Shown piece after piece: positions 1 through 35,041 of a stretch of 62,476 bases of DNA. The number at the start of each line of letters is the position of its first letter. The first letter of the stretch is position 1. Under the pieces are notes generated by a model, which made no database searches, had not been told where the DNA came from, and worked only from the letters and a program-made list of their open reading frames with translations. Origin of the DNA: a virus. Its lineage: Duplodnaviria > Caudoviricetes. The translations under genes were made by a program, and so were the position numbers. The stretch is from positions 1 to 62,476 of the IMG/VR virus record IMGVR_UViG_3300017788_000023. The stretch is one strand, 5' to 3'.

Positions 1-318
1 AACGCCAGCGATGTCATAAGCGACAAGGTTAGGCATTGAACGGCGGATTAGGCTGATTAGGATAGGATCGAAACCAGCAAGACCAGCAGTGTTGCTGCTA
101 CTTAGAGCAGAACCAGCAGGTGAAATAGTACCAGCGCCTAGTGAATTGACTGATACTTCATTGAGCATACCGTGCTCTTCACGGATAGCTTTTTCTTGAT
201 TTTCTAGCAGGGCGGCGGTAACTGATCTGCGGTATGGATCTTTGATCTCTGAAAGACCAACGCCATTAGCGTTGAGAACAGGTGCCCACTTTTCCTGCAA
301 AAGTCTTGAATCTGACAT
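1..318 (-). CDS. gp23: Major capsid protein, N-terminal 106 aa (truncated by window edge)
   Basis: Manual translation MSDSRLLQEKWAPVLN...TAALLENQE...AGFDPILISLIRRSMPNLVAYDIAGV matches T4-like gp23 motifs; AAGGAG RBS; follows gp22. Not in the ORF track. Confidence 0.97.
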   Translation of the reverse strand, partial: MSDSRLLQEKWAPVLNANGVGLSEIKDPYRRSVTAALLENQEKAIREEHGMLNEVSVNSLGAGTISPAGSALSSSNTAGLAGFDPILISLIRRSMPNLVAYDIAGV

Positions 319-356
319 TTGCTTTAAACTCCTTTGAGTATTTGTGTGGTTGTAAT

Positions 357-364
357 TATTTATT
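357..364 (-). promoter_or_regulatory. T4-type late promoter (AATAAATA) for gp23
   Basis: NATAAATA about 40 nt upstream of the gp23 ATG. Confidence 0.75.
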
Positions 365-369
365 AATAT

Positions 370-1491
370 TTACTGCCAGCGCGAAAGAGTTTTGAGATAT
401 GCCGCCATTGCTGGTGAAATATCTTCTTGTCCTTCTACTGGTGTTTCATCCGAAACTTGCTCAGTTACTACATGCTTAGGGAAGTAGCTGCTAATGAGAG
501 TTGCGACTTTGTTCTTGAAGTCTTCTTCAGAAACAAACTCTACTCCTTCAGCAAGTGAAGCAAGCTTTTCTCTTTGGGTGTCAACTAAACCTTCGCTCAT
601 TTGATTGAGTACGACGGTTTTGTGGTATCCAGAGAGTTTATTATTAAGTTCAATATTACGCTCAACCTGTTCGGTAAGGCGATTTTCCATTTCACAAAGC
701 TCCTCGGTCATTGTTTCTACAACATTGACTTTCTCTGCAGGGAGATCGAGGTAGTTTTCTTCAAAAACTTTTTTGAGTCCACCCATGAACTCTTCAGCAA
801 TCTCAAGTTTGAGACCACTATCAAGAGCCACTTGGTTTTCTTCTACCCAAGTAGTGATTGCGTAGTTGAGTGTTTCATCAACTTTCTCTGCAAGTGTAGC
901 AATCTCTTCTTGGAGTTTTGCGGAGAACTGCTCTTGAAGTGAAGAAGCGATAGCAGTTACTTGCTCTTCGATTCTTGACTTGACAGCAGCTTCGAAGATT
1001 GTTGATGCTTTTGCTTTAAAATCTTCGGAGAACTCTCCACCTTCGGTAAGGGCAGCAACATCTTCTTCAGCAGAATAGTTGATTGCTTCCATACCAAATA
1101 CTTTTACATTGTTTGAACCACCAGGAATCTGGTATCCAGATGACTTAACAGATGGAGCAGGATCTTGATGCGTACCACGAGTTTGGTCATCCGAAACTTT
1201 TTTATTGTGGTTTGATGATTTAGCACCAGGATTTTTTTCTCCAGCTGGTTTTTCGAAAGTTGATCCACCATCATCTTCTTCTGATTGACCAGGAGCAACT
1301 GAGGTTGGGATTTCAAATCCTGAATCTTTCCCGCCACCACGAGTTTGCCCATCACTAACTTGACCAGTGACTGGTTTCATGTATTGTGTACCTGAAGATT
1401 GACCAGGAACGATTGAAGGAGAGAGCGCACTTGTGCCAACTTCTGACTCAGTTACAAGCTCCTCAAACTTTTCGTTTAAGTTATCTGACAT
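370..1491 (-). CDS. gp22: Prohead core scaffold protein
   Basis: FSEDFKAKASTIFEAAV motif, acidic coiled coil, C-terminal MAAYL; lies between gp21 and gp23. Confidence 0.93.
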   Translation of the reverse strand: MSDNLNEKFEELVTESEVGTSALSPSIVPGQSSGTQYMKPVTGQVSDGQTRGGGKDSGFEIPTSVAPGQSEEDDGGSTFEKPAGEKNPGAKSSNHNKKVSDDQTRGTHQDPAPSVKSSGYQIPGGSNNVKVFGMEAINYSAEEDVAALTEGGEFSEDFKAKASTIFEAAVKSRIEEQVTAIASSLQEQFSAKLQEEIATLAEKVDETLNYAITTWVEENQVALDSGLKLEIAEEFMGGLKKVFEENYLDLPAEKVNVVETMTEELCEMENRLTEQVERNIELNNKLSGYHKTVVLNQMSEGLVDTQREKLASLAEGVEFVSEEDFKNKVATLISSYFPKHVVTEQVSDETPVEGQEDISPAMAAYLKTLSRWQ

Positions 1492-10419: not shown

Positions 10420-10440
10420 ACGATGTACCTTTTATTTTTA

Positions 10441-13404: not shown

Positions 13405-13415
13405 GTATCACCCGC

Positions 13416-13449: not shown

Positions 13450-13468
13450 GTATAGGGATATATTTATA
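13434..13468 (-). promoter_or_regulatory. Two consensus late promoters TATAAATA upstream of gp13
   Basis: Exact T4 consensus at 13434-13441 and 13461-13468. Confidence 0.7.
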
Positions 13469-13471
13469 TAC

Positions 13472-13669: not shown

Positions 13670-13698
13670 GTTTGTTTATGTAAAATGATGTGACTGAT

Positions 13699-14963: not shown

Positions 14964-15540
14964 CGCTTTTCTCCATGAAAGATTCTAATACATCTTGAAT
15001 ATAAATATCGCCTTCACTACCATCATATTGAAATACCATAGTCAATCTTCCTTGGGATTCAGATAAGCACGTAGAAGGTCTAGATCCGTGATATAAAGAT
15101 GATGGGGCAATAACAACTCTACCTGGCTTGGGCAAAACTGAAATTGTAAAATCTGGGTTCTCTGATTTAGAAAAATATGTATCACCTCCCCAGTGTTGTT
15201 CCCATTTAACATTTAAATATATTATAAAACTAAGCCCATGTGGGGTTTCATAGTTATCTCTGTGGGTGTCACAGAAATCTAATTGTTTAAATAAATTAAT
15301 TAATACTCTAGAAAAATTTGGAATTTTAAAAGGAAAACTTACTTGTAGTTTTTCCAAAACCAAATTTACCACCTCATCATCTTGTTCTGGAAAGGATGTA
15401 AAACTAACAATTCGATGTGTTACATCGCTAGTTAATCTATAATTTTCTAATTTATATGCCCAATTTTCTAAAAATTCAATTTCTTCTGGTAAAAAAATAT
15501 CATCTACAATAATAATATCTTCAATGTAATTAACTCTCAT
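14956..15540 (-). CDS. 2OG-Fe(II) oxygenase (prolyl-hydroxylase-like)
   Basis: HRD, IIYLN..W...WGGDT, PKPGRVV, YHGS, RLT. Confidence 0.88.
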   Translation of the reverse strand: MRVNYIEDIIIVDDIFLPEEIEFLENWAYKLENYRLTSDVTHRIVSFTSFPEQDDEVVNLVLEKLQVSFPFKIPNFSRVLINLFKQLDFCDTHRDNYETPHGLSFIIYLNVKWEQHWGGDTYFSKSENPDFTISVLPKPGRVVIAPSSLYHGSRPSTCLSESQGRLTMVFQYDGSEGDIYIQDVLESFMEKSDA

Positions 15541-15545
15541 AATTT

Positions 15546-16211
15546 TTATTCATTAAAACGACTATAAATGCTCCGAAACCATCCAGTTAAAATATATTTG
15601 TTTTTTGTAAATACTGTATTACCTCTATGTATATGAGTATAAGCAGCGGGCCAAAGAACAATAGTTCCAGCGGTAGGTTTAACTCTTAATTTTTGATGAA
15701 AAAATTCTGTTTCTGCTTCCCCATCAGGCATATCGTTTAGATAAATCATCCAGGTTACATGTCTGCTATTAAACCCTTGAGATGCGCCTATTCTTTCAGA
15801 GTGCCAAATATGATAACCACCACCAGGAGGTGTTCTCTGCATTTTTACTTCTGAAGATATCAAAGTTGTTGAAGTTAAGTCTGGATATTCTTTAGAATAT
15901 TCTTCGAATGCTTTTTGTAAATGTTCATAGCAAACGTCAGCTAATCCTTCATCAAGAATATTTAAATATAATGCAATATCACTTCTTCCAGTTTTACCTG
16001 ATTTAAATTGTTTATCTCCCAAAGATAACTCCACCTTGTCCTCTCCTGCTTCATCTCTTGACTCTTCTGGTAGAAGAGCATAATCCTGAGGAGATAAACC
16101 AAAATTCATTAATTTTTTATTCAATGTGAATTCAAACCATTTAATGTATTCTTCACACATTTCTATGGACATAGCATTTTCAAAAATTCCAATGTGATCA
16201 ATTATTTTCAT
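15546..16211 (-). CDS. 2OG-Fe(II) oxygenase
   Basis: GGYHIWHSE, WMIYLND, ETEF, WPA.YTHIHRGN, KYILTGW. Confidence 0.9.
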   Translation of the reverse strand: MKIIDHIGIFENAMSIEMCEEYIKWFEFTLNKKLMNFGLSPQDYALLPEESRDEAGEDKVELSLGDKQFKSGKTGRSDIALYLNILDEGLADVCYEHLQKAFEEYSKEYPDLTSTTLISSEVKMQRTPPGGGYHIWHSERIGASQGFNSRHVTWMIYLNDMPDGEAETEFFHQKLRVKPTAGTIVLWPAAYTHIHRGNTVFTKNKYILTGWFRSIYSRFNE

Positions 16212-16232
16212 ATTTAATTTGTTAGTTATTAA

Positions 16233-16240
16233 TATTTAGA
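16233..16240 (-). promoter_or_regulatory. Variant late promoter (TCTAAATA) for the oxygenase cluster
   Basis: CTAAATA about 22 nt upstream of the first oxygenase ATG. Confidence 0.5.
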
Positions 16241-16244
16241 TTAG

Positions 16245-17849
16245 TTATAAGGCACCAGAAACTGTTCCTGTGTACGAATATGCATATGCTTGATTAGCTC
16301 TAACTGCTCTTCCAGCAGCGCCAGGGCTGCCACTGCCGCTAACCGCGCCGCCTGCTTGACCCCAATCACCTCCATTTCCACCACTGTTTCCAGGATTACC
16401 TCTATTACCTGCTCCTCCAGTATTTCCCCTTCCTCCTGGATTCCCTGAATTACCTCTGTTCCCAGGGTTTCCAGCATTTCCGCGTGCTCCATTGTTTCCA
16501 GGATTTCCGTTATTTCCTCTATTCCCGTTATTTCCTCTAGTAACAACTGATTCACCACTCGAATTGCAATTTTGCCCGTTGCGCCTTATGAATCGTCTGG
16601 TCCAGGTGTTAGTGGCGGACTGGACGCCGCCACCACCAGGATTACCACCGCCACCACCACCAGCACCACTACCAGGGTTGCCATTGTTGCCACCACTGCC
16701 AGGCCATGAAGTTGGAGAAGGATTGCCAGCATTTCCTGGATTTCCTGGATTCCCAGGATTGCCAGGGTTACCAGCATTTCCGCCACTACCTCCAATTCCT
16801 CCACTTAGATAATTATATCCTCTTCCTCGTCCCCCAGCTCCACCAGATCCACCAGGACCACCAGGACCACCAGATCCTCCACCACCACCATTTCCACCAC
16901 TTCCGCCAGGTCCACCCCTTCCATTGTTTCCAGGGTTTCCAGGATTTCCGCTATTACCTCTATTACCTCCGTTGCCTCGGGCTCCTCCAGGACCAGTAAC
17001 AGTTCTATTTCCAGAGTTTGACGTTGACGTTGTACGACTGCAGTTGGCACCCCCACCTCGGCCAAAAGTTCCAGACCACCTGACGGTCGTTCGATCTGGC
17101 CTCGAAAGTGAATTAGCGTTTCCAGCGTTTCCAGGGTTTCCAGGGTTTCCAAATGCTCCAGCAGTTCCACCATTCGCCCCATTTCCATTACCACCAGTAT
17201 TCCCAGGATTCCCACCAGATCCAGGATTCCCAGCAGATCCAGTATTACCAGGATTCCCAGGATTCCCAGTACCGCCCCCGCCGCCGCCACCTCTAATAGA
17301 TCCACCAGATCCAGATACTCTATATCCAACAACAGAAATTAATATGGCGTCACCACCAGGATTTCCAGCAGCTCCAGGATTACTACCCCCAAAACCTCCA
17401 TCACCATAAATGTTTCCACTATTAATTTGAATATTAACATTACCAGCTACAGTTCCTGTTCCAGATGATAATGCTGTATTTGCAGCTGAGCTAGCGCCAA
17501 TAGTTCCACTAATTATTAGGCGCTTCGGAATTACTTTATCGTAGTTACTATTCCATAGAGTTAACGAGGAAACAGTAACGTTTACGTCAGTGCCAGTTTG
17601 AGTAACTACAGATTCTTTTATTGTGTTTCTAAATTTACTAGCTGAAATATTAGAATTTGTTGTTGGAACAGCAGCATTTTCAGTAGCATCATAAATGAAT
17701 GGTGCCGAAGTATTATTAACAGTTTTTCTTTTTAATTCACTGTACGAAATCGGACCAGATGTTACTTCTTTATATGTATTTCGTAGGGAAGAAAGAGAAA
17801 TTGGACCAGTCCCCCCAAAATTTTGAGTTGTCGCTGAGTTGAATCCCAT
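16245..17849 (-). CDS. Glycine-rich gp38-like tail fibre adhesin with Gly-X-Y (Gly-Asn-Pro) tracts
   Basis: IYGDGGFGG...GGDAI...IRGGGGGGG and [12 protein letters not shown]...GAAGRAV...GTVSG resemble T-even gp38; directly follows an S74-chaperone fibre gene. Confidence 0.7.
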
Positions 17850-17850
17850 A

Positions 17851-20800
17851 TTACTTATTCTTTAAGGTTTCTACTTCTTGCTTCAATTCTTTAATCGCTT
17901 CAATTAACAGAGGAACTAATCTTTCATATTTAATTGCATAATAACCATTATCTCTTTGAGTTACAATTTCTGGTAATACTTCTAGAACATCTTGAGCAAT
18001 TACTCCAGCTTCTCTTAAAGTTTGATCCTTTCCTTCTGCCTTATCATTCCAGTTGTAAGTTACACCAGAAATCTTATCAACTTTATTTAGAGCATTTTCA
18101 ATAGGTTTAACATTTACTTTCAATCTGCTATCAGATGTGGCGAATGCAGTAATATCATCATTACAAGTGAAAGCACCTACATTGCTAATCGTAGCAACAT
18201 CTGTACCACCTCTACGGAATTTAACAACTTCGGCACTACTACTACCAGCATTAATATACCATCTGTTTGAATGATACTCTATCTTTCCTTCATTAGCAGC
18301 AGCATCTCCAGTCCAATTAGCAGTAGTATCTTGACGGAAGGAACTAGTTCCCCCTAGACGTAAAACACTATTTGTACCACTAGTGAATGTGAACTGAGCA
18401 CTGCCAGCAAGACTACCACTATTATTATATTGAACTTGTGTATTGGATCCTCCAATATCAAATAATGCCCACTCAAGACCAGAAGCAGTTGATTTAATAA
18501 ATTTACCAGCACCAGTATTTGCTAAGTAGGTAGTTACTCCACTTCCAGATTGATAAGGAACACTACCAGCAGCACCACCAGCAAGATTAGTGGCAGTTGT
18601 TGCTGTGGTTGCATTTCCTGTTAGAGCAGCAGTAATTGTACCAGCACTAAAGTTACCACTCGCGTCTCTAGCAACGATGTTTGTGTTACCACTTGAAGAA
18701 GCATTAACATTAATAGTTCTTGCTGTTCCTCCATCAAAGGTAGAACCAGAATTGTAACTTAAGAAAGTTCCTAGAGATAGAGCAGCAGCTGTAGAAGCGG
18801 TAATAGTAATATTAGCACTACCATTGAAAGATACTCCATTTATATTTCTGGCAGTTTGTAGCGTCGTGGCAGTAGTAGAATTACCAGTTAAATTAGCGGT
18901 AATAGTGCCAGCAGAGAAATTACCATTGTTATCTCTCTTAACAAGAGTATTATTAACATTTAATGTAGCAACTGGATTATTACCTGTGTGGAGAATAGTA
19001 TACTTAGTTGAAGTACCAACAGACCAACCACCCCAGAATAGATCATTGGTAGCACCATCAAGACCAAAATAACCAGCGTAATCTCCAGTTACATGGAATG
19101 TAAGGAAGGCATCTCGACCAACAGTATCATTTACAATTGTAAGTGTCTTATTACCAGTTCCAACACCTTGATCACCACTTTCAGTATTAATAACTACTTT
19201 GTTGCCAGCGAGAAGATTTAAATCTCCTGACATGGTATCGCCAGTTTTTAATACGTTTAGAGAAGCAGCTCCAGTTAACGTGGCGGTAATAGTACCAGCT
19301 TCAAAATTGCCAAGAGAATCACGCTGAACAGCGGTACTAGCATTGTTTAGTGCTGAGAAAGTAATATTACCTTGGTTCCAAATTATATTACTGTTTATAG
19401 AAACAGAGTTAGCATTTGATGCTAGAATGTTTAAAGAACCAGATCCATTTGTTGAGTTACCGCCAGAAACAGCAAGACGTACATTGTATAAACCAGCAGG
19501 AGAGCTACTAGATCTAAAATCAATTACTGGGACAGAAGCAGTTCCATCAGTTCTTCCAAGTGATAATCTAGCAGTTCCAGAAGACGATTCTAGTTTAGCA
19601 ACGTCAAATGTTCCAGCAAAATCACTGATATTATAATCATTAATAATTTCATTTGTTTGAGTATTACCAATTCTGAAAGCATCAACAATGTTACCAGAAA
19701 GTAATCTACCAGTTAAAATACTATAATCTAAAGTATCATCAATATTATTGAAAGTTGTTACATCAACAAGTTCAAAATCACCAACTTTAATACCAATAGC
19801 ATCAAACAAATCAATTGTTAATCCAGCAACAAATGGTGCTTCTGAAAGAATCTTGCCAGAAATATAGATGCTATAGAATGTTTGAGAAATATAATTTTTT
19901 ATAGTTAAGCTAGTATTGACTCTTGTTGCGTCTAAGAAAGAGGAAAGGTGAGAAGGACCAACAATACCAGAGTTAATATTATAACCATTTTGATAGAATA
20001 CACCTTGTCTGCCATCAAGTACGTCGGCGTCTAGTCCAGTGCCAACACCATCATTGATAGATGTCCAAACCTTTGCCCAAGAACCGAATGTCGAAACACC
20101 AGTTCCAGAACCACGGATCCACAGGTTATTGTTATCAGTGAAAGCAAGTTGCCTTACACCACCACCAGAAGCATCCGTAGAGGTTCCAAATTGTCTGTAT
20201 GTAATAACACCGTGCCTGACTCCACCATCAGAAAGACCGTCAGCAGTATTGTTTCTTGTATCAGCAACAATACCTTCATTAAATGTTGATGGTGAAGGAG
20301 AAGAAGATGGATTATTTACTTGAGTAACTAATCTTAAAGTATTAGCAGAATTCCCAGCAATATCAATACCATACAAACCGCTGCCTAGTTTATCTGGACC
20401 AATCGAAAGATTGATTAGATTTTGACCATCTCGGTAGAAAAGCCCTTGCTGACCATCAAGTAAGTCAGCATCAAGTCCAGAACCTGTTCCTGTCTTAAGT
20501 TCTATTGAACCATCGCCAGATGTTCCAATATTGAATTGTGATTTTTTGAATCTAGCAACACCAGTATTTCCATATTCATTTGCTGCGAGTGTCTTATCAT
20601 CAACACGTTTAATATCAATTCCTACATTAGCAAAATTCTTTACGCTAGTATTGACTTTACAATCTAAAACAGCATTAGCTCCAAAACCAAGAACGACTGG
20701 CATCTGTACGATAGAAAAATCTGCCGAATAACCAGTTCCTCCACTAGTCACTAAAACAGAAGTTATACTTCCTCCAGTAACAGTAATAATTCCTTTTAAC

Positions 20801-23800
20801 CCAGTACCAGTGCCACCAGATAAAGCGACATCAAAATAAACACCATCTGCATAAGAAGATCCCCCAGAAGTTATTATAACTTTATCTACAAAATTACTTA
20901 ATGTAAATGTAGAATCTAATAGAACAGGAGATTCTGGTCTATTAAATTGAATAACAGTATTCTGTGGAATCAGTTGAGTTACGGATGTTGAAAGAGTAAC
21001 AACTGTGAAAGAGACATTATCTACTATAGTCACAAATGTGTTTGCCACAGTTGTTCCTGCTGGTATACCAGGAGCAGTGACCTCATGCCCAATTAAAATA
21101 TTATTATTTAATTTAAATTTCAATACATTTTGACTATTAGATGTTTGATCTGTTGTAAAATCAAAATATCTTCGTTCTGCTGGTTTGATGGATTGTACAG
21201 CAGCAGCAAAAGAAGAATCTCCTCTTAAGAATGTGAAGGAGTTTGCTTCTCCAGCATTACCAGCAAGTCTTGAAGTTGAAATAATTCCTGATGTAATATC
21301 TTGGGCAGCAATTGAAGATGTTGAAAGAGATACCCAGTTACTTGCATTTGATCCAGATGTGTTTACAGTTCTAGTGACAGGAACTGTGACAGGAACTGCG
21401 TTGGTAGATTTAATTGTATCACTGTCAGTAATTTTAATATTATTAGCAATATCAATATAAACACGAGATTCAATTAACGCAACAGCTGTCGCTTGTGTTC
21501 CACCAACTCCAGGAGCAGAGAAAGTAACTGTTGGTGGTGTAGTATAACCAAATCCTCCAATATAATTATTGTTCGATACTATTTTTACTGTAACTACTTT
21601 ACCATTTACAACAGTACACGTAGCAGCAGCAGAAACTCCCCCAGATTGTTCTGGTGCAGTAATACTCACGGAAGGTGGAATTAACTCACTGTACCCAGAA
21701 CCTTGATTAATAATATTGATTTTGAATACAACACCTTGACGATATTCTGTTATTTCTCCTTGACCAGTAGAAACACTACCAGTTAGAAACTCACCTGACG
21801 CAAATTGTAAAGTAGTATTTACAGCAACAGCAACAAACTGGCTTTCTAAATCATTGTTTAAAATAAATGACGTAGTTGATCCAAGTTCGATAGCAATATC
21901 ACCAGCAAGTGGACCTTCTAAAGCAAGTCTTTCCGTTGTATTTTGAATTGTAAATACGTTGAATGGTCTTAGAGCTGGAATTTGATCTAGAGAAATCTTA
22001 CCAGAATCAGTAAGTTCTACAAGGTTTCTTGGAACAGCGTTAGTTGAATATGGTTTGTTAAGGTATTGACCTAAGTTATTTGAAATGTAATCCTTAATAG
22101 CTTTCTGCGTTGAAATTTTTGTGTCAGAAGCAAAGTTTCCTCCTAATGTATTTGAAGCATCAAATCCAGTAACAACAACGTCGCCACCTTTCAACTTAAG
22201 GAATTCAACTTCCGAGATCGAAACTGTACCAGTGAATGTAATATTACCAGTTCTGTTTTCAATCTTAGCAAAGTAACCTACTTTGAAGTCACCAAGTTCA
22301 TCAGTACCAGAAGTATAAACACGTCCATATTCTTGAGATACTTGTTCTAATGCTTCATTTTTAATACCACCATTTTCTGGGAGTGCTCTATAGTCGTTAC
22401 CAGATCCAGCATATTCCCATGTGTGAGAAGACGAGTTGACAATAGAGGGTCTGTGTAGACGAACTTGCTTACCTACAAGCTCAGCATTACCGACAGTGAT
22501 TGGTTGACCATTGCTCTTTCTCTTAAGCAGGATTGCCTCGTTAAGATCAATAGTTGAAGTAAATGGAGGACCAACTGTAGTTTGTCTTACTCCTTCAATA
22601 AAGTATTCAATATTAGAATTTTGGTTTTCGTAATCAGCAAATTTAACAATATAATGCTCAAGTGGTTCTCTACCAAGACCGCCAACTGTAAATACAGTTC
22701 TACCTGTAGCAGTTGTAGTAACATTGGTGATAGTTCCTATATCAAAAGAATATGGCTCTAACCTAAATCCTTTAGCTCTTAGAGCAAACGTACCAAAGTT
22801 TGTAGCAGAGTTTGTAACAGAAGCATAACCACCAGTATCAGCAAAGATACCATCTTGAGCAAATAGAACGAACACAGAAACTAACTGTGTGTAACCATCA
22901 TTTACAATTCTATAACCAGTCCCACCAAATGAAATGATAGTGAACTGGGCAGCAACCATTGACTTACCCTGATTTGGGAAAGTAGCTTTGGGCGCAGCGG
23001 ATCCAATTGCTGGATTTAGACCAGGGCGAGGGCAGTTTGGTTGTCTTACTTTATCACCATCAATCTCACAACCGCCACCACCAAGGAACGAAATTACAGA
23101 AGCGTTTTGAATGTATGGTGATGCTTCAATAAATGGTAGATCTGCCCAGGTGGCATCTATGCTAACTCTCTTATTGTCAGCATCATAAATTGTATTTTCT
23201 GGATATACAACTGTTGGATTATAAAGAGTTCCATAACTCTTAGTAACTACACTACCATTTGCTAAGATATCATCTAAAATAGCAAATGATGTTGTGATTG
23301 CTGTAGCAACATTAGCACATGTTGGAGTATTTGGATCAACAATAGTTGTCGAATCAATAAATTGTGGAGCAGTAGCAAATTCTGGAACAAAAACAGGACC
23401 AGTGCCATTACCTGTCTTCCAATTTCTCATAGCAAGAATAGCTAAATCTCTTACTTTTATAAATGCCTGTCTAGTAGGTAGTATTTGATCTGCTGGGAGT
23501 CCTGTTAGAGCATTTCCAGTGTAATAAGATTCTCCAGCAGTAACTATTCCAGCGTTGCCTCCAAGAATTAAATCTCTTCTAAGTGCTCCAAGAATTTTTC
23601 CGATGTCTCTACGGCATTTTGTTGTTGTGGTAGTTAAGAAAGAACCTTCATTAACAGTAGGAAGTGAATTAAGATTACCCGCAGAAATAGCAGTAGTAGC
23701 AATAGCAATAAGAGTACCAATGCTATTACGTACATCAATACAAGATTCTGAATTATTATTATTGTTTAGTTCTCCTTGAGTACCAAAACCAAAACCTGGA

Positions 23801-26800
23801 TTTGTTGGTAGATATCCTGGGTTTGGATCTCCAGTGATTGTTAGATCTTTTGCGTATAACTGATTGGTTACAGCTAATCTCATCACATCTCTAGCCTTAT
23901 TAAAAGCAGTGATAGATTGAGATTCTTCGTTTACTAATCCGTTTGAAAGTGGAATTGTATTGGTTATAAAATATCTCTTGACAGCTCTAATTATATTCTT
24001 ATTACCACCGTCATAAAGGTCAGAAGCAACAGCATCAACAATGATACCAATGTCTCTACGGCACTTACTTTCGCCAGCAATATAAGTAGTAACAGTTTGA
24101 GCGGGAAGACCAGTTAAATTACCAGCAGTAATTCTGTCAGTAATCAATACAGTTGAGTTGACTATTGCTGATTGTATGTCAGAACAAGCGGTAGAAGATG
24201 TATTAGGTACGACTCCTCCTCCACCACCAAAGTTAGCAGGACCAGGAGTAACAGTGAGATCCTTGTAGAACAAACCGTTAGTAACGGCTTTTTTCATTAC
24301 ATCTCTTGCTTTGTTAAAAGCAACTACAGATTGTGCTTCTTCATCTACTAATCCATTACTAATAGGAGCGTTGTTATTAAAATATTGAAGAACAAATTTT
24401 CTTGAATACTTATTACTTCCAGAGAAAAGATCTAAAGAAACAGCATCAACAAAAATGCCCAAGTCTCTGCGGCACTTAATATTACCACTTGCTTTTCTTA
24501 CAGCAGGAAGACCTGAGGTATTACCAGCTTGAAGTGTGGTTGTAAGAATAGCAATAAGGGTGCTAACAGCACTTCTAACATTAGCACATGAAGATTCGCT
24601 AGTATTTGATAGTGTATTAGGATCTGCTGTGATGGTTGTGTCCTTAACATATAATTGATTTGTTAGGGCTCTGTTCATCCAATCTCTTGCTTTGTTAAAA
24701 GCAACTACTGATTGACTAATTTGACCTGCCAATCCATTTGATAGTAGAGTAGTGGAATTTGTAAAATATCTTAATGTGTGATCAATAATTCTTGAGTTAC
24801 CGCCTGTTTGGAGATCGTAAACAATAGCATCAACAATGAGTCCAATATCTCTGCGGCACTTAGCTTCTCCAGCAGGAGTTACACTTTCGCCAGTAGTAAT
24901 TACTGGAAGAGCATTAGTGCCATTGATATCACCAGCAAGTATTCTTGTCTGAGCAATAAGTGCTAATGTTTCTATTGCTATTTGTACATCAGCACAAGCA
25001 GCAGCATTTCCTGATTGTAAAACAGGAATGTTGGGACCAGGAACTCCATATGTAGCAGTGCTAGAAGTTATGGTAAGATCTTTGATAAGAAGTTGGTTAG
25101 TTATAGCCTTCTTCATCATTTCAGTTGCTTTGGTAAAAGCAGTATCAGATTCGAGTTCTTCCCCAGCTAATCCATTGACAATTTTAATACCAGTTTGTGG
25201 ATTGAAGTATAATTTAGTAAATGCTACAGTAAATTGATTTCCTCCATCATAGATGTCTAGACCAATAGAATCAACAAATAAACCAATATCACGCTTACAT
25301 TTTGCTTCGCCAGGAGTTACAAAAGAATCTCCATTTGTTACGGTTGGTAAAGCATTATCACCATTAATATTACCAGCAGTAATTCTAGTAGTAACCAGAG
25401 TGGTTAATGTTAATAACGCTGCTTGAACATCAGCACAAGCTGTTGGATCAGTATTAGAAACTATCGCCCCTCCTCCACCAAAATTAGCAGGACCAGCAGT
25501 AATACCGAGATCCTTATATGCTAATTGATTGGTTACTGCTAACTCACATTGTTCTCTAGCTTCATTGAAAGCAAATACTGATTGTGCTTCTTCGCCAGAT
25601 AAACCATTAGAAATAGCAATACCACTTCCATCAAAGTACAGTTTAATAAATCCAATTGTATATTGATTTCCTCCAGTTATCATGTCAAGAGAAATAGCGT
25701 CAACGAAGAGACCAATATCTCTCTTACACTTATTGATATCCCCTCCAGGAACAGTGAATCCAGGGAACTGTGCTTGCGTTGAATCAAAAGCAGCATTAAT
25801 AATTTGTGTTCTGTTCTTCTGAATTAAACGATAACCATCTTTAAATCTAGATCTAGCATTAGTTTGAGCATCCCCAGGATAGAAGAAATCGGGGTGATCA
25901 ACAGCAATTTGTGCTGCTCCTGTATCGATAATTTGTTGGCGATTCTGTTGAATTAATCTATAACCATCTTTAAATCTAGATCTAGGTCCAGTTTGTGGAT
26001 CACCAGGATAGAAGAAATCAGGGAACTGAATAGCAATTTCAGCGGCAGCTCGTACCTTGATTTCTTCTTTATTAGCTCTAATTAAATCAACAGAATCAAG
26101 ATATCTGCTTTGATAATCTCTATTAACATTTGGTAGACCAGTTAAGTTACCAGCAGTTAATCTAGCAGTAATAATTGCTGTTAAGTTAGAAATATAAGTT
26201 TGAATATCAGAGCAAGCAGTGGAATCAGTATTTGGTACTGTAGCTACACCAGAAGCATAAACAGCAGACCCAGGAGTGACCGTTAGATCTTTAGCAAACA
26301 ACTGGTTGGCGACTGCTAACCTCATTTGATCTCTTGCTTTATTGAAAGCAGTATTCGACTCAGCAATTTCATTAACCAGACCATTTTGAAGTAGAGTTGT
26401 GGGACTAGTAAAATATTGCTTTAAGAAATTAATAGAATTTGAATTACCACCTAAGAATACGTCAAGAGATATAGCATCAACAAAGATACCAATATCTCTC
26501 TTACACTTAGCTTCTCCAGGAGGAACAGTAGTTGATACTGATTCAGCAGGAAGACCAGTTACGTTACCAGCAGTAATTCTATCAGTAATAATTAGTGTTA
26601 AACTTGTAATAGCAGTTTGAACATCTGAGCAAGCAGTAGAATTAGTATTACTAACATTACCGCCCTCGCCATAATTAGTAGGACCACTAGTGACAGTGAG
26701 ATCTTTGATTGTCAGTTGGTTAGCAACTGCCTTTTTCATTTCATCTCTTGCTTTATTAAAAGCAAGAACTGATTCTGCTTCTTCTCCTACAAGACCATTT

Positions 26801-29800
26801 GTAATAGGAGTGCCATTATTGAAGTATGAAAGAACAAATTGACGACTGTATACATTTCCGCCAGCTTGAGCAATGTCTAGAGATACAGAATCGATGAAGA
26901 TACCAATGTCTCTTTTACACTTAGCTGTATTTGTTGCGTTGATGACAAAAGATGGGAACGCAGGAGCAATTGCGGCAAAAGCAGTATCAATAATTTCCTG
27001 TCTATTTAATTGTATTAATCTATAACCATCCTTAAATCTAGATACAGCAGTTGTCTGAGCATCTCCAGGATAGAAGAAATCTGGATGCTGAACAGCAACT
27101 TGAGCAGCAGCACGATCAATAATTTCTTGTCTATTTTGTTGAATTAAACGATAAGCATCAGCATAACGTGAACGCTCATTAGTTTGTAAATCACCTGGGT
27201 AGAAGAAATCAGGGAACTGAACGGCGACTTCAGCAGCAGCTGTATCAATAATAGTTTCTTTGTTTTTTTGAATTAGACGATAAGCATCGTTGTATCTGCT
27301 TTGAGCATTAGTTTGTGTATCTCCAGGATAGTAAAAATCTGGATGCTCAACTGCTACTTCTGCCAAAGCACGATCAAGAATCTCATCTCTATTATCTCTA
27401 ATCAGATTAGTAGAATCTTTGTATCTAGCAGCAGAAGGAAGTGGACTTAAGAATAATTGAGGAAAAGCATCTTCAATATATCTTGAAGCTTCTTGTTTAA
27501 TAAATTCTTGGTTTCTAGCAATTAAATATCCAGATTCTACAAATCTATCAATTTGATTATTAGAAATAATAGCAAGGAATGTATCTGCTAAGTTATTGAT
27601 AGCAGATGCTACGTTAGCACAATAAGGCCAAACAGGATCAAGTGTTACATCTGGGTCAAAATATCTATCTACATTAGAAAATTGTGGATTATATAAAGCT
27701 CCATATTGATCAAGTCTCCAACCTCTCATTGCTAGGATAGTAAGATTCCTGGCAATATCAAATGCTCTAATTGTTTCTGAAAGTTCTGTAGCAATATAAC
27801 CAACACCAGTTCCTATAACATAATACTTAGCAGCTTCAACGGTGTTATAGTTGCCACCATACTCCATATCACGAACGATAGCATTTACGAAATGACCAAT
27901 ATCTCTAATACACTTTGCTTCATCTGGATTAGTAAATTCTGGAAACTCAGCAATGGTTTGCTTATAAGCTTCGTCCTTGATGAACGCAAGATTATTGGTA
28001 ATTAAATTTCTAGCATCTTGATATCTTCTAGCAATATAAGGAGTTTCTTCAAATTTATTGGGAGAGTTTAATAATGATAAAGTTACATAATATGAAAAAT
28101 GGGATACGGTAGCACCAGATGGAGCAAAATTACTATCCGTAAATCCAGGCATGTTATCTTTAGGAATAACAAATCTTCTGGATCTTGAGTCGTCATCAAT
28201 TAGTACTCCAGTTTTATCTAAATCATAAATTCTTTGAATACCATTTAAGTTTGCTAACGATGCTGGCAAACCAGAAATGAATACTTCCTGCCCTTCATGA
28301 AAATCATGAATATTCTCTACGCCTTGTAAATCGTTTGTGTAGAAAATAATACCACCAACTTGAGCTTGTTGTGAACCATCAATTCTAGAAATAGGTATAG
28401 TCTTTGTAACATTAGTACCAGTATTAACAACTTCACCTTCTGCTCTAATAGAAGATAAACTTACAAGTGTAAACTGAAATTCTCTCGCCCAATTAGTTCC
28501 ATTCCAAGTGTAAGTAATACCATCATTTGGATGAATATATGTATCTCCAATTGCAGGAGTTGATGGCCATCCAGTATAGTCTACAGGAGCTTCGATATAA
28601 TAACGAGCACTTTCTCCCTGAGCAAAAACACCAATTGAAGTTTCGAAATCTACTGATCCTTTTTGATATGCAGTTGGACCTGTAGTAGTATTAAACGTTA
28701 CTGTTTTAATAATTCCAACGGCGCTGGAGTTGACACCATTAATTGTTTCGCCAGCAACTAAAGCATCTAAACCACCGTTAAAATCAAAAGTAGATCGGAA
28801 TAAAGCCTTACCAAAAATTTGGTGCCCAACTGGGAATCTTCTTTTGAAATCACCGCCATAAGTTTGATTGTAATAAATTCTCTGTTTATCATCAAATGAA
28901 CAGGCAAACTTCCACGTAGAAACTGGATTTCCAGAAGTATCTAATTTATCCCTAAATGTTATTCCACTGATATAATTTTTATCAGCAAATTTAAACATGT
29001 CTTTGCCAGGATTATTCGGTCTGACTAATACAATACGCAAAGAGTCACCGACAACTGAACAATCTGGGGGGATAGAAATTGGGTTGTCTTCCAAATAATC
29101 GCCACCAGCAATAACAACAGTTTCTTTTATATTCGTAGATTCTGTTGCTAATTGGCAAGCGCGTTTAATAGTTCTTACTGGAGAAGCAACGGATCTACCG
29201 TCGTTTTGATCATCACCGATTTGCTGTGAAACATAGATTCTACCACCAACGTCGTTGGTAGCAAGGTTTAATACGTATTCGGTGGTAGCAATTTTAGTTG
29301 TATTATCTCCTAGTGGTGGAGTAATACTTCTTGGCCAAGATAGTTGACCGTAATAAGGTTGAGTTGGATCATCAACTCTAAAACCAATATGATCTAATTG
29401 TACTGTACCATTTAAGGCTTGACCAGTCCTGTGAAGTGGAGGAAATGCTCCAGTGATTCCAGTATTAAGTGCTCGATAAACGTTAGATTCAAAATGTCTA
29501 ATTTGATTTTTTGCTAACGAAACATTAGCAACCCAAACTTGCTCAGAATTATTATCAAATACTTTTAAAGAAGGCGCACGTATATTAAGATCTGCTGTTA
29601 CAAAATTTCGTAGGTCAAGATTTAAAATTCTTGCTGTATCAGAAATAATTGAAGACGATGTTCTGATAGCACCATTAACATCAACTTCATATTCAATAAT
29701 ATCTAAAGTACAAGTTGCTGCCGCACCTGCCCCAGTAGTATCTCCAACTGCATTTTGAATTGTAATTGTAGGAGCACTAGTATACCCAGATCCTGGATTT

Positions 29801-30129
29801 GAAACAACAATAGCAATTACTCTTCCATTTGAAAGAATAGCAGTAGCAGTAGCTTGAATAGCACCAAGAACAGCTGGAGGAGGAGCAATTTCTATAATCG
29901 GTGGACTGGTATAACTAGCACCTTGTGACGTAACAGTAATAGTATCTACACGACTTCCAGTTCTATTAATACCAATTCTTGGTAATTTTGTATTGGGATC
30001 AATTGAAGCTCTAAAAATTTCTTTTTCTTCTGATCCTTGCCCAGATCTAATTATAAAATTATCACTCCCGATAATTTTAGGTGTATTAGATTTGATGTAC
30101 TGTTTATCAGAATTAAATTCTAATCCCAT
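17851..30129 (-). CDS. Giant (4092 aa) tail fibre / virion protein: split beta-helix, nine phycobiliprotein-like repeats, C-terminal peptidase S74 chaperone
   Basis: C-terminal SDSRLK...GVIAQDV...PE.V...[15 protein letters not shown]; DADLLDG repeats; [11 protein letters not shown] repeats; KCxRD repeats. Confidence 0.85.
23260..28035 (-). repeat. Protein-level repeat array: nine ~40-aa N-units and nine ~130-aa KCxRD core units
   Basis: KCxRD Cys codons at 27910, 26917, 26503, 25726, 25297, 24856, 24472, 24061, 23614. Confidence 0.9.
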
Positions 30130-30708: not shown

Positions 30709-33700
30709 TTATCTAATGAAGGTTTTTAAAATAGTAAATTCTACACTAGAACCACTAACAACAGAGTTATCTAATGTAACTGTCAATCGAACATCTCCGT
30801 TTGAATCAATATCAAATGCAGCGTCGTATAGGAGATTTCCTGAAAGCAAACTTTCATATTCTATGTTATATATATTTACTCCATTAGCAATAACATTGTA
30901 ATCAACCATGTGTTTATGATTAGTTAACAGATCAACAGCTATAATAGTTACTTTACAACCGACAGCAATCAGAGGATTGTAAAGAACATATGGATTGAAA
31001 TCATTTGTTCCTCTAACTAAAGTAAATTTAGTAGATTCTAATACAGAATTAGCAAGTCCAAAATAAGTTAAACTTCTATCTAAAATTTTCTCTCCCGTAT
31101 AAGAACCTTCCGTAAAGGTTTTATTTACATAGATCTCACCAGTAGCACTTAATCTTAATAAAGCATCATTAGTAAGACCAGATTTTAATCCAATATCTAA
31201 ATTATCTTTACCAGAATAAAGTTTTGTTATTGTGGCACTTTCTGAATTAATAGCAAAAGTATCACTAGAGTATCTGACATCATTGATATTAATATTTAAT
31301 CTGTTATTGTTTGATGTGACAGTATTGACAGTCTGGAATGTTAGTGCTGTTTTTGAGAGACGTAAAGTATTGTCACCATCATTGTAGAAATACAAGATAT
31401 TTTCATTAGCTCCAGCTGAAGTTTCTGGAATAATAAACGTGTTGCCATCAACGTCTCTTACGCCACCTAAACTTGTCCAAGCATTTCCATTGTATCCTTC
31501 ATATTGTGTTGTTGCTGTGTTAAATCTAACAGCACCTGATTCTGCAATTCCTCTATTGGAACTATCACCAACAGGCAGAACAAGTGAGGTTGTAGCATTA
31601 ACCTTTACTAATTTTCCTACAAATGGAGAAATAGTGATGTCTTCGGATAAACTAGAAATATCATTATTAGTAATTTTTAATTGGTTATTTACATTTACTA
31701 CGCTATTAATATTGACGCTAGTAATATTACTAAATGTTAGGTTCCCGTAGATAGTTCTAATAAATTCATAACCATCTGTAGTTCCTGTGGTATGTGTAGG
31801 ACCAACGCCAGCAGAAGTTAGATCAGCAGTTATTCTGTATACATTTATTCCAAAATAAACTAAATCATTTTGGAAAAATAGTGTAGCGGCTGTCCATTGT
31901 AAAACATTGTCTAGATTAATTGATGATATAGTTCTAGCAGATCTAAATTCAAGTTTATTTTGATCTAACTGTAATGAATTAGCATTATTATTATAAAAAT
32001 ATAAAATATTTTCGTTAGATCCCGCTGAAGTTTCTGGAATAATATATGTGTTGCCATCAACGTCTCTTACACCACCCAAACTTGTCCAAGCATTTAAACC
32101 ATATCCTTCAAACTGGTGATTACTAGTATTAAATCTAACAGCTCCAGTTGACGCTGAACCTCTTTCTGCAGTTGTCCCAAAAGGAATAACTAAAGATGTT
32201 TGAGAATCAATAACTACATTAGTACCCCCAAAAGGTTTGATTGTTAAACCAGATAATAGTGTTTCTATTTTATCGGAAGTAAGAGTTACATTATCATTTA
32301 AACGTAAAGAAGTATTAGTTAATTTAAGGACACCATTAGAAGAAACTATGGAATTTATATTTTGAAAAACCAATGCATTTTCTGTGACCCTTAATGTATT
32401 TGTACCATTATTATAGAAATAAAATATATTATCATTTGCTCCTACAGAAGATTCGGCAAGCAAATATGTATTGCCATCGGTATCTCTAACACTTCCTAAA
32501 CTAGACCAAACATTTGTGGATCCATCGTAACCTTCAAATGTTCTGGTATCAGTATTAAATCTAATAGCGCCTGTCTCGGCATCTATTTGAGGTCTTTGTA
32601 CTTGAGTTCCAGATGGAACAATTAATGCTCTATTAGAATCAATTTTTACATTGGTTCCTGCAGATGGTTTTAAAATTAATGGATTAGTTAAAAGTGTCTC
32701 AATTGTATTATTTTTGATAGTTGTAATATCGTTTACATTTAATCCATTAAGACATTTAACTTCACCATTCGTAGATAGATTGCCGTTAGAAGATTCAATT
32801 GATAAGGTTGTGACATTATTATCAATAAGATTAATTCTATCCGAATTGATAATAATGTCATTAGTTACTTCTAAATTAAAATTATATAATGAAATAAGTT
32901 TCGGTGTGGTGACACTTGTTAATGTAGTTATTGTGTTATTTTCTATATAACCTATATAACCATTTGCGGCATTCACGTCATCTCCTGTAAATGATACTGC
33001 CCGTAAATTTCCAGTTAATACGTTTCCTTCTATTGGTGTTGTTACCGATATACCTACAGCATTAAATACAAAACCACTTCCATCACTCGTAGCTGTAACT
33101 ACACATTTTGCTTGGTCGGCAACATTATTAACACCAGATATAGTAATTATATCACCTACATCGTAACCAGTACCAATATTATTTACTACAACACCAGTAA
33201 TAGTGCCGCCAACAATTTGCGTAATTACTATCGTAGCAGCTCCACTACCGATAGTAATTAAATCATTTGATGTATACCCAGATCCAGGAGTGTTAATTAC
33301 AGCTGAAGTTATTTCTCCTCCAGTTACTCCAGTTACAGTAAATTCACCTCCCGTGCCATTTGGAACTGTTAATACGTCACCAATTTGATAATTTTGACCG
33401 CCATTTAAAACATTAACTCCTGTAATAACGCCACCGAAAATTGATGATACTGTTACATTAGCAAGGTTATTGCCTCCATCAATACTTAAAACATCAGATA
33501 CTGTATACCCAGTTCCTCCTTGAACAATAGCAACTGAAGTAACTTCACCGCCAGGATCAACTGTTAATTGTAATCTGGTATCATCTGGATCAGGATCCCC
33601 GTCGCCATCGACCTGCTGAGAACCAGGAATAGTGACTTCTTCCTGATCGGTATAATTAGTACCAGGCGTATTTATAACTATAGATGATGGAACTCCACTG

Positions 33701-34836
33701 GCATCCACAGTAAAATTAACAGTAAGACCAGTACCAGTTGATGAAAGATTTACATTAGATGTAGAAACATCTGAAAATGTTCCTTCATTATAGACAGAAC
33801 CAGCATTTATTATAACAAAAGAAACAACAATGTCTCTTGGTGTTGCTGTAATATTTACTGTAGCTCCATTACCAGATCCGCCGCCTAGAGGTCTTTCTTC
33901 TGCTTCGTATGAATTACCAGTTGCGCCTAGGGTAATTTGATCGATTCCTCCATCATCTACTACAGAAATCTGAACACCAGCACCAGTTCCACTTCCTCCT
34001 GTAGGATTATAAGTTCCACTAAAATAATTAGACCCCGAAATTATATTGCCTACACTTCCAATAATACCACCAGTTGAGGCAACAATATCTAGAGTAAGAC
34101 CAGAACCAGATCCACCAGTCGTAGATACATTTTGTGATGTTGTGTAATATTGTCCACCGTTTAAAAAACCTAAAGTTGTTGGAACACCATTATCTGAAGC
34201 TGTTACATCAACTGTTAACCCAGTTCCACCTCCCCCAGTTGTGGCTATATTTAATCCAGAATTATAAGTTTTTCCACCGTTTGTTAAATTTAACGATATC
34301 ACTGTTCCCGTGGGAGTAGACGAGATTGCTGCGGGAGAAACAGTTAGATTATCTCCAACTACATAACCATAACCACCATTAACAATATTTACCTGATCAA
34401 CAACGCCTGCCAGGCCTACAGTGACGGTAGCTGTTGCCGACGTACCTGTACCACCTATAACATTTATGCCTTGATAAGTTCCTGGAAGATATCCAGATCC
34501 ACCATTAGTAATTTGTACATTTTGTGTTGATAGAGATCTTTTTTCGGCATATAAATTTTGGGCAAAATATGATCCAGTGGGAGATAATGATAAAACAGGT
34601 TTCCCACCACTAGCAAAACCTAAACGTTGAGCGCCATCTTTGTAGATACCTAAGCTAACATCCGATTGAAATGCGACAGATGGAGAAGTTAAAGATCCAT
34701 CGGCATATACTGTTTTAAGAACAGCAACGGTTTGTGCCCCTGAAGTATAATTATATAAATCTTCAGCAATTAAATTTACTATTTTTCTCTGGTTTTCAAG
34801 AGTGTCGGTATTAGCTACATTTCTAAGTATTGGCAT
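30709..34836 (-). CDS. Large fibre / structural protein (1375 aa) with repeats
   Basis: Three GAxRFNT...FEGYxG..WxSLGxVRDxDGNTxxxxExxxGxNxNIxYFYN repeats; GxGY beta repeats. Confidence 0.8.
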   Translation of the reverse strand: MPILRNVANTDTLENQRKIVNLIAEDLYNYTSGAQTVAVLKTVYADGSLTSPSVAFQSDVSLGIYKDGAQRLGFASGGKPVLSLSPTGSYFAQNLYAEKRSLSTQNVQITNGGSGYLPGTYQGINVIGGTGTSATATVTVGLAGVVDQVNIVNGGYGYVVGDNLTVSPAAISSTPTGTVISLNLTNGGKTYNSGLNIATTGGGGTGLTVDVTASDNGVPTTLGFLNGGQYYTTSQNVSTTGGSGSGLTLDIVASTGGIIGSVGNIISGSNYFSGTYNPTGGSGTGAGVQISVVDDGGIDQITLGATGNSYEAEERPLGGGSGNGATVNITATPRDIVVSFVIINAGSVYNEGTFSDVSTSNVNLSSTGTGLTVNFTVDASGVPSSIVINTPGTNYTDQEEVTIPGSQQVDGDGDPDPDDTRLQLTVDPGGEVTSVAIVQGGTGYTVSDVLSIDGGNNLANVTVSSIFGGVITGVNVLNGGQNYQIGDVLTVPNGTGGEFTVTGVTGGEITSAVINTPGSGYTSNDLITIGSGAATIVITQIVGGTITGVVVNNIGTGYDVGDIITISGVNNVADQAKCVVTATSDGSGFVFNAVGISVTTPIEGNVLTGNLRAVSFTGDDVNAANGYIGYIENNTITTLTSVTTPKLISLYNFNLEVTNDIIINSDRINLIDNNVTTLSIESSNGNLSTNGEVKCLNGLNVNDITTIKNNTIETLLTNPLILKPSAGTNVKIDSNRALIVPSGTQVQRPQIDAETGAIRFNTDTRTFEGYDGSTNVWSSLGSVRDTDGNTYLLAESSVGANDNIFYFYNNGTNTLRVTENALVFQNINSIVSSNGVLKLTNTSLRLNDNVTLTSDKIETLLSGLTIKPFGGTNVVIDSQTSLVIPFGTTAERGSASTGAVRFNTSNHQFEGYGLNAWTSLGGVRDVDGNTYIIPETSAGSNENILYFYNNNANSLQLDQNKLEFRSARTISSINLDNVLQWTAATLFFQNDLVYFGINVYRITADLTSAGVGPTHTTGTTDGYEFIRTIYGNLTFSNITSVNINSVVNVNNQLKITNNDISSLSEDITISPFVGKLVKVNATTSLVLPVGDSSNRGIAESGAVRFNTATTQYEGYNGNAWTSLGGVRDVDGNTFIIPETSAGANENILYFYNDGDNTLRLSKTALTFQTVNTVTSNNNRLNININDVRYSSDTFAINSESATITKLYSGKDNLDIGLKSGLTNDALLRLSATGEIYVNKTFTEGSYTGEKILDRSLTYFGLANSVLESTKFTLVRGTNDFNPYVLYNPLIAVGCKVTIIAVDLLTNHKHMVDYNVIANGVNIYNIEYESLLSGNLLYDAAFDIDSNGDVRLTVTLDNSVVSGSSVEFTILKTFIR

Positions 34837-35041
34837 TTCTTACGATTTCTCTTAGAAGATTTTTAATATCTGATAATTCATTTTTTAAACTTTCAACATC
34901 ACGTTGAAGATTTTCGATAGATGCACTGCCGTTACGCAGTTTTTTTACATCTTCAAATATACCTTTGTCAGTATTTATAATGGCACCAGTATCGTTGTCT
35001 CTGACGAGATAATCGTAATCCCTTACCTTAATATAATTCAT
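34823..35041 (-). CDS. Small protein with C-terminal coiled coil
   Basis: LVRDNDTGAIINTD...LKNELSDIKNLL; coupled to neighbours. Confidence 0.75.
   Translation of the reverse strand: MNYIKVRDYDYLVRDNDTGAIINTDKGIFEDVKKLRNGSASIENLQRDVESLKNELSDIKNLLREIVRNANT

Follow-up and report, generated by a model that had tools for sequence, protein, structure and literature searches.

The window analysed here is the whole of the IMG/VR virus record IMGVR_UViG_3300017788_000023, a stretch of 62,476 bases with an estimated completeness of 32%, and its reverse strand carries a giant tail-fibre gene whose product, P0001, is encoded in a single open reading frame (ORF) of 4092 amino acids (aa). The segment of P0001 from about aa 700 to aa 2294 very probably consists of nine phycobiliprotein-like domains, the first of which (a-C1) is contiguous, while the other eight form one nest that is split at the loop between helices B and E (B-E loop). 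Each domain would be made of a short N-unit (a to i) and a longer core (C1 to C9), and the nest would read b( c( d( e( f-C2 )C3 g( h( i-C4 )C5 )C6 )C7 )C8 )C9. Recursive insertion of domains into the loop preceding the CxRD helix had been proposed in a first-pass annotation of the window, and the proposal is now supported by the single known fold to which both types of unit belong, by the counts and order of units in homologues, by paired loss in close relatives and by predicted contacts.

Repeat units of the fibre protein

Regular expressions locate nine cores with the motif C.RD.G (aa 740, 1071, 1209, 1468, 1611, 1758, 1886, 2023, and 2172 of P0001) and eight N-units (aa 702, 902, 945, 988, 1031, 1342, 1385, and 1428). 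A ninth, N-unit b (aa 861-893), is seen only with an iterated hidden Markov model (HMM), at 21.6 bits. The resulting order, a C1 b c d e f C2 C3 g h i C4 C5 C6 C7 C8 C9, is exactly that given in the first-pass annotation, and the span given there, 23260-27550, covers b to C9 (27549 to 23248), with a-C1 falling just outside. MAFFT alignments reveal clear homology within the nine N-units and within the nine cores, which are true repeats; N-units c-f and g-i are tandem 43-aa repeats of two helices each. The units, with the evidence for each in brackets, are as follows:

27922..28029 (-), N-unit a (aa 701-736), helices A-B of the contiguous domain a-C1 (regular expression, HMM)
27547..27921 (-), core C1 (aa 737-861), helices E-H, partner a (regular expression, HMM)
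27451..27549 (-), N-unit b (aa 861-893), weak, putative outermost opening half with bracket partner C9 (HMM; partner from the parse)
27319..27426 (-), N-unit c (aa 902-937), putative bracket partner C8 (regular expression, HMM; partner from the parse)
27190..27300 (-), N-unit d (aa 944-980), putative bracket partner C7, with a B-E loop that would hold both sub-arms (regular expression, HMM, parse)
27061..27171 (-), N-unit e (aa 987-1023), putative bracket partner C3 (regular expression, HMM, parse)
26941..27042 (-), N-unit f (aa 1030-1063), joined directly to C2, innermost domain of arm 1 (regular expression, HMM)
26548..26925 (-), core C2 (aa 1069-1194), missing together with one N-unit in relatives L001-L005 (HMM, relatives)
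26131..26514 (-), core C3 (aa 1206-1333), putative bracket partner e (HMM, parse)
25999..26109 (-), N-unit g (aa 1341-1377), predicted to pack on C6 (HMM, model)
25870..25980 (-), N-unit h (aa 1384-1420), predicted to pack on C5 (HMM, model)
25744..25851 (-), N-unit i (aa 1427-1462), joined directly to C4 (HMM, Pfam PF00502, model)
25363..25734 (-), core C4 (aa 1466-1589), phycobiliprotein-like fold with i in the model (HMM, model)
24919..25308 (-), core C5 (aa 1608-1737), touching h through helices E and G in the predicted complex (HMM, model)
24505..24867 (-), core C6 (aa 1755-1875), touching g through helices E and G in the predicted complex (HMM, model)
24103..24477 (-), core C7 (aa 1885-2009), putative bracket partner d (HMM, parse)
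23659..24072 (-), core C8 (aa 2020-2157), putative bracket partner c (HMM, parse)
23248..23622 (-), core C9 (aa 2170-2294), putative bracket partner b, which would close the whole nest (HMM, parse)

Relation to the phycobiliprotein fold

Pfam family PF00502 matches P0001 at 93.1 bits (cut-off 22.2; E 2.2e-26), the best stretch being aa 1433-1490, equivalent to profile positions 35-98 and running across the i/C4 junction. In a six-frame search of the record, three of four PF00502 places lie above the cut-off, two of these only jointly with in-frame neighbours. The earlier supposition that splitting would hide the homology from linear HMM searches is therefore wrong, and the PF00502 match is also precomputed on most homologues.

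A single domain searched with phmmer against the PDB (i-C4) gives weak matches (best E 0.062; 13 of 14 to phycobiliproteins), so a profile search is needed. A profile built from 48 contiguous N-unit plus core domains of the window and IMG/VR loci matches 58 PDB sequences at E <= 0.01, all of them phycobiliproteins, with CpcA the best at 1.1e-5. The alignment pairs profile positions 3-63 with phycobiliprotein residues 35-103, placing the N-unit on residues ~35-65 and the KCxRD helix on the Cys84 helix. Comparison by hhalign with 14 CpcB and 6 CpcA sequences from cyanobacterial contigs gives a probability of 96% (E 4e-9, 60 columns) and sets the KCxRD cysteine on Cys82/84; the alignment does not extend past helix E, helices F-H having no detectable sequence similarity. 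All nine cores carry the motif KC[KR]RD[IL]G, whose counterparts in the alignments are KCARDIGYY in CpcA and Cys82 in CpcB.

Judged from these profiles and from the models described below, both types of unit derive from a phycobiliprotein-like globin fold; in the helix nomenclature of phycobiliproteins, the N-unit matches helices A-B and the core matches helices E-H. Since the N-unit and the CxRD helix (helix E) are neighbours in one known fold, N-unit and core are parts of a single domain. The loop that precedes the CxRD helix is the B-E loop of this fold, and the question of the split is thus already answered for the contiguous a-C1, f-C2, and i-C4. No segment for the N-terminal X-Y helix hairpin, through which phycobiliproteins pair alpha with beta subunits, is evident in the units, as the sequence matches begin at phycobiliprotein residue 33-40 and the N-units are only 37-43 aa long; the top row of the structural comparison by VIA-align takes in phycobiliprotein chain residues 1..184, drawing on the preceding N-unit.

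Unit counts and order among homologues

Relatives of P0001 were found by tblastn in 316 phage records, at 781 matching places, nearly all in Synechococcus or Prochlorococcus myoviruses and all at less than 60% identity. Three HMMs were used to tokenise 151 proteins (120 giant homologues and 31 complete ORFs from 78 IMG/VR loci), one for the N-unit (N), one for the E part of the core (E, helices E-G), and one for its H part (H, helix H). The core was divided in this way because many homologues carry a second split in the loop between helices G and H (G-H loop). Token strings were then parsed with the grammar D -> N S E S H.

Equal numbers of N-units and cores had been put forward as a check on the nesting, and the homologues largely agree: the N count equals the E count in 129 of 151 proteins, with r = 0.987 over 50 distinct strings in which N ranges from 0 to 15. 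Within families, the N and E counts shift in step. The closest relatives (L001-L005, 78-81% identical over d..C7) have exactly one 43-aa N-unit and one core fewer. As for the order of the brackets, 92 of the 151 proteins (21 of 50 strings) parse exactly, whereas 59 do not as tokenised. A further 17 strings (40 proteins) parse after one token edit, mostly for an absent terminal H or a doubled E. When the token strings of homologues are shuffled, 0 to 151 of 20000 parse. Strings that parse include N10(EH)7 NN(EH)5, NNNN(EH)4 N6(EH)6, and NNE NNNN EHEHEH E NEH HH EH, and the S-PM2 homologue P0061 (a 3340-aa frame that holds p091) parses as NEH NNNN EHEHEHEH. Nesting depth among the parsed proteins runs from 2 to 10; it is 6 in P0001 and 10 in 15 of the 151 homologues, the P0007 type among them.

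These data bear on the explanation in which the N-units form an independent tandem solenoid of helical hairpins, the cores are lone four-helix units, and the balance is a coincidence of repeat expansion. The tandem two-helix character of c-f and g-i is what such a solenoid would look like, and a single protein would be balanced by chance in one of ten orderings. However, the match of N and E counts across so wide a range of copy number, the loss of an N-unit together with a core in close relatives, the homology of the N-unit to helices A-B of the core's own fold, and the predicted contacts, in which every N-unit meets helices E and G of one particular core, all speak for split domains instead, such that the solenoid is already disfavoured and highly improbable.

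The G-H loop is a second insertion site, which the first-pass annotation missed. It hosts more domain copies in homologues such as P0041-P0099, L006, L011, L020, and L026, and is not used in P0001. Some NNNEHEHEH blocks are 750-1380 aa long instead of ~530, so that unrelated sequence is also inserted inside cores. In P0116 and in L016, L017, and L018 (ORF of 3034 aa), the string is H NNN EH EH E, with a lone helix H first and an E part without H last, as might result from circular permutation, the two ends of the array together making up one domain. In L031, the nest runs over two overlapping frames, the ORFs 5732-10729 (NNENNNEHEHE) and 10659-17834 (HHEH), while the near-identical L032 reads through as a single ORF, 5732-11734; the split in L031 may reflect a frameshift, a sequencing error, or a broken gene.

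Bracket balance within P0001

Nine N-units and nine cores placed in random order are bracket-balanced in one case of ten (the Catalan number over the binomial), so the balance of P0001 taken by itself is weak evidence and the weight comes from the homologues. With the three token types, none of 20000 shuffles of the P0001 string parses. A Mantel test between the N-unit and core identity matrices of P0001 gives r = 0.77 under bracket pairing, a value reached by 77 of 20000 permutations, and r = 0.23 under sequential pairing. Across 12 proteins, bracket pairing gives r of 0.48-0.82 and exceeds sequential pairing in 10.

The individual likenesses that had been cited in support of the pairing hold for the cores but not for the N-units. 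C1 and C9 (36%) and C6 and C8 (57%) are mutual best matches, whereas a and b, and c and g, are not best matches: N-unit a is closest to c and e (38%) and only 29% identical to b, c is closest to e (60%, against 56% to g), and the best match of g is d (65%). Under bracket pairing, crude typing by regular expression matches type-2 N-units to type-2 cores in 21 of 22 cases, compared with 17 of 22 under sequential pairing and 11.7 expected at random; this comparison is given little weight because the typing of cores is unreliable.

Structure predictions

AlphaFold2 was applied to the block g h i C4 C5 C6 (540 aa, 24-row alignment), yielding a model with a predicted local distance difference test score (pLDDT) of 86.3 and a predicted template modelling score (pTM) of 0.88, in which the N-units score as high as the cores. 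Each N-unit is modelled as two helices and each core as four main helices. The best VIA-align match is phycoerythrin 5aqd_M (Z 15.8, root-mean-square deviation 4.1, 151 residues aligned), covering model residues 61..246 (i-C4). Phycobiliproteins, ApcE, and phycobilisome entries fill ranks 2-8 (Z 12.3-14.0), and unrelated globins score 6-10. Almost all of the Foldseek matches listed are likewise phycobiliproteins, with template modelling scores of 0.6-0.77 normalised by target and E of about 1e-2. In the VIA-align comparison, two rows with globins run over model residues 1..528 and 1..530 (Z 6.1), the extent of g plus C6, which suggests that g and C6 make one globin-like unit in the model, as such rows would be expected in that case.

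Predicted as separate chains, g-h and C5-C6 reach an ipSAE score of 0.82, whereas the best of three controls stays at 0.00; the runs share at least 90% of their contacts, and the partner pLDDT is 81-82. In calibration, 58 of 80 solved complexes attained this ipSAE mark, as did 2 of 110 mismatched pairs; these counts hold only roughly here since the test used a custom alignment. The lowest-error contacts join the E and G helices of C5 (274-289, 326-337) to h (52-67) and those of C6 (424-428, 483) to g (15-24). Domains are thus predicted to assemble from distant segments, h (aa 1384-1420) with C5 (aa 1608-1737) and g with C6, with i-C4 between them. This placement corresponds to the antiparallel pairing of the brackets, which the prediction supports but does not show. 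Of the AlphaFold contacts between predicted partners that had been suggested as a check at the outset, those of the predicted complex favour h-C5 and g-C6; for d-C7 and the branch, the low-confidence d..C7 model is neutral.

The separate-chain result fits equally well with N-units packing on the cores of a neighbouring chain in a trimeric fibre, a three-dimensional domain swap that would give an intermolecular zipper and no intrachain hairpin. Equal counts would be expected there too, and P0001 ends in a Peptidase_S74 intramolecular chaperone domain, a C-terminal domain typical of trimeric fibres. Set against this, in the innermost pairs a short B-E loop of phycobiliprotein type links the two halves and fixes their pairing in cis, the monomer model is confident as one body (pTM, as above), and the homologues keep bracket order beyond mere equality of counts. 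Pairing between chains is accordingly judged distinctly unlikely, and nesting within one chain is preferred.

It may also be asked whether the bracket order is a fossil of successive insertions, the outer domains having ceased to fold as units and the outer N-units and cores having taken other roles. The outer units b, C9, and C1 are the most diverged, and the deeper closures d-C7, c-C8, and b-C9 are in no model, as this explanation would have it. On the other hand, counts stay matched in families whose copy number has changed, which requires continuing selection on pairs, and pairing is predicted even for units that lack a contiguous partner (h, g, C5, and C6). Such a fossil is most unlikely, and domains that still fold from paired halves are favoured.

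Proposed architecture of the nest

In the proposed arrangement, whole domain copies inserted in the B-E loop would separate an N-unit (helices A-B) from its core (helices E-H). The chain would run outward through the N-units and return through the cores, each level being a clasp of one outbound and one return piece, to yield a single-chain hairpin rod in which outbound A-B helix pairs are clasped level by level by returning E-H bundles. With such an out-and-back path, the nest of 1435 aa would begin and end at one point of the fibre. The B-E loop of domain d would host two arms, one of e and f with C2 and C3 and the other of g, h, and i with C4, C5, and C6. A stiff arm branching at level d, and with it the Y shape suggested by the first-pass annotation, would follow from the parse of the sequence. 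Folding would presumably proceed from the inside out, and length would change in whole pairs of N-unit and core. The pairings i-C4, h-C5, and g-C6 are predicted by the models, and e-C3, d-C7, c-C8, and b-C9 are probable from unit order. Three nesting levels (g, h, and i) are accordingly backed by models, and those of b, c, d, and e draw on the bracket grammar of the homologues. In view of the gene context, the nest may have a structural or adsorption role, as a spacer or host-contact arm of a baseplate-associated fibre.

Several observations weigh against this architecture. N-unit b, which would open the nest, is the weak 21.6-bit match. Of the 59 homologues left unparsed as tokenised, 19 proteins (12 strings) do not parse even after one edit, and P0029 and P0105 correlate better under sequential than under bracket pairing in the Mantel tests. 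The fold of d..C7 (1071 aa, six near-identical rows) has a pLDDT of 31.1 and a pTM of 0.20, and is uninformative on d-C7 and on the branch. Pairing in cis in the AlphaFold2 model draws on the pTM and the two weak alignment ranges, and the complex test, with its custom alignment, omitted i-C4 and left few alternative partners. Finally, pairing within a chain and pairing between the chains of a trimer are not separable with these data.

Conserved cysteines and CpeT

Each of the nine P0001 domains contains exactly two conserved cysteines, the first in helix E and the second at the helix-H N-cap (e.g., aa 740/837, 1071/1167, and 1209/1306), which together account for 18 of the 28 cysteines of the protein. 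The homologues retain C.RD in 1036 of their 1123 E units and the helix-H cysteine in all 1026 H units. The helix-H N-cap cysteine is placed like Cys153 of CpcB, an equivalence by topology only, given that the hhalign alignment ends at helix E. The Cys153-type site is served by T-type lyases (PMC10452541).

Of 43 testable loci, 22 have an ORF of the CpeT bilin-lyase family (PF06206) no more than 2.6 kb upstream of the fibre gene and in the same orientation. This adjacency is found in 22 of 23 loci of the 'NNE' fibre lineage and in none of 20 with other architectures, including the type found in the window. The same adjacency occurs in S-RSM4, S-PM2, and Syn1. Examples are:

L031:5217-5717 (+), CpeT-family ORF adjoining the fibre ORF that starts at 5732; also in L041, L076, L029, L044, and others
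L204:5399-5923, CpeT-family ORF of S-RSM4, adjoining the fibre gene

Across 16 complete cyanomyovirus genomes, which are related so that the counts are not independent, 12 have both the fibre domain and CpeT, one has the fibre domain only (P-SSM7), three have neither (P-SSM2, S-SM2, and S-SSM7), and none has CpeT only.

The conserved cysteines and the co-occurrence with CpeT make bilin-loaded, light-responsive fibres a testable idea. The fibre domains would then be real bilin-binding sites, with the KCxRD cysteine and the helix-H N-cap cysteine as candidate attachment sites, loaded by a phage CpeT-type lyase together with ho1, pebS, or pcyA where present, and the result could be pigmented, light-sensitive fibres. 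This is a speculative proposal that we consider rather unlikely. Soberer alternatives are that the two cysteines form a structural disulfide and that the adjacency of CpeT and fibre is plain conservation of gene order. The genomes are related and the CpeT adjacency amounts to one conserved locus; no CpeT match is present in the window's own record (32% complete), which also counts against bilin loading, as does the fact that we know of no report of coloured virions, although no search aimed at such reports was made.

If bilin loading were real, the virion would carry its own photoreceptor, which would explain light-dependent adsorption of cyanomyoviruses as well as the role of the phage cpeT and bilin genes. 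The role of phage cpeT has been called 'unresolved', and that of pcyA and pebS 'a mystery' (PMC3037559). P-HM1, P-HM2, and S-PM2 adsorb only in light, independently of photosynthesis, while P-SSM2 adsorbs in the dark (PMC6628666). The fibres thus offer a concrete candidate for two open questions, the purpose of the phage cpeT and bilin genes and light-dependent adsorption. The literature search returned papers on cpeT and none that links cpeT to fibres.

Gene context

All units lie within the one fibre ORF, and the search for N-units and cores found no phycobiliprotein-like units in the other ORFs of the window. The fibre gene and its C-terminal domain are:

17851..30129 (-), giant tail-fibre ORF (P0001), counterpart of S-PM2 p091 'tail fiber protein'
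17962..18135 (-), Peptidase_S74 intramolecular chaperone domain (PF13884), C-terminal, aa 3999-4056 of 4092 (E 4e-17)

P0001 matches tail-fibre PHROGs, and the ORFs around it match the baseplate wedge families phrog_219 and phrog_438 and virion structural PHROGs, a T4-like baseplate/tail module. S-PM2 p091 has the same gene neighbourhood, among virion structural genes. Three further giant structural ORFs flank the fibre gene, at 35041-43410, 45291-56186, and 30709-34836 (all on the reverse strand; 2789, 3631, and 1375 aa). None of the three has phycobiliprotein-like units, and a short region matching phrog_460 is common to all three and to P0001. Directly downstream of the fibre gene lies an ORF of 534 aa (window 16245-17849, reverse strand) that is rich in Gly, Asn, and Pro and of low complexity, with GNPGNPGN runs; its DNA stands out with a GC content of 0.44 and a GC skew of -0.26.

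Comparison with known systems

Giant structural proteins of other Kyanoviridae, including S-PM2 p091 and the S-RSM4 'short tail fiber protein' SRSM4_214, contain the same units as P0001 and are named in public records only as fibre, structural, or hypothetical proteins. The PF00502 match itself is already in public databases. In the literature search, which left subscription journals and supplements outside its scope, no description of phycobiliprotein-like or nested fibres was found.

Phycobiliproteins such as CpcA/CpcB, CpeB, and the bilin-binding domain of ApcE have their fold in common with the i-C4 model (Z 12.3-15.8 to phycoerythrin, allophycocyanin, and ApcE). Sequence homology to them runs from helices A-B through the B-E loop to helix E, where the K-C-x-R-D-I-G motif falls on the Cys82/84 bilin site. 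The fibre domains have their insertions at a position where ApcE, too, has an inserted loop, between helices B and E. In contrast to these antenna proteins, the P0001 domains belong to a virion fibre and appear split and nested, with up to 15 copies per chain in homologues. They also appear to have no room for the N-terminal X-Y helices of phycobiliproteins, since the matches begin at about residue 35. A light-harvesting fold of the host has been co-opted to build cyanophage fibres, with the units occurring in the 316 phage records.

As an architecture, the nest resembles the Si3 insertion of the cyanobacterial RNA polymerase. In a survey of 2.7 million domains, Si3, with eight hybrid-motif domains nested 6 levels deep, serves as the example of complex nested insertion (PMC13114784), and a second study describes its sandwich-barrel hybrid motifs SBHM-2 to -5 as containing elements from distant parts of the chain (PMC10895346). 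Like the proposed fibre nest, Si3 has one domain type recursively inserted into itself, discontinuous domains, and an elongated module whose ends meet. Si3 is a beta sandwich-barrel in the trigger loop of the polymerase beta' subunit, whereas the fibre nest is all-alpha, globin-like, and located in a phage fibre. The fibre nests further differ in having two insertion sites (the B-E and G-H loops), a widely varying copy number, and depths of 6 in P0001 and 10 in the 15 deepest homologues.

P0001 and its relatives would therefore represent a very deep case of one domain inserted into itself. With their freely evolving copy number, they would offer a natural system for the inside-out folding of split domains, with rod length tuned by whole-domain steps. 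Annotation pipelines that expect contiguous domains will mis-segment such proteins. Among known systems, the closest architecture is that of Si3 and the closest fold is that of the phycobiliproteins.

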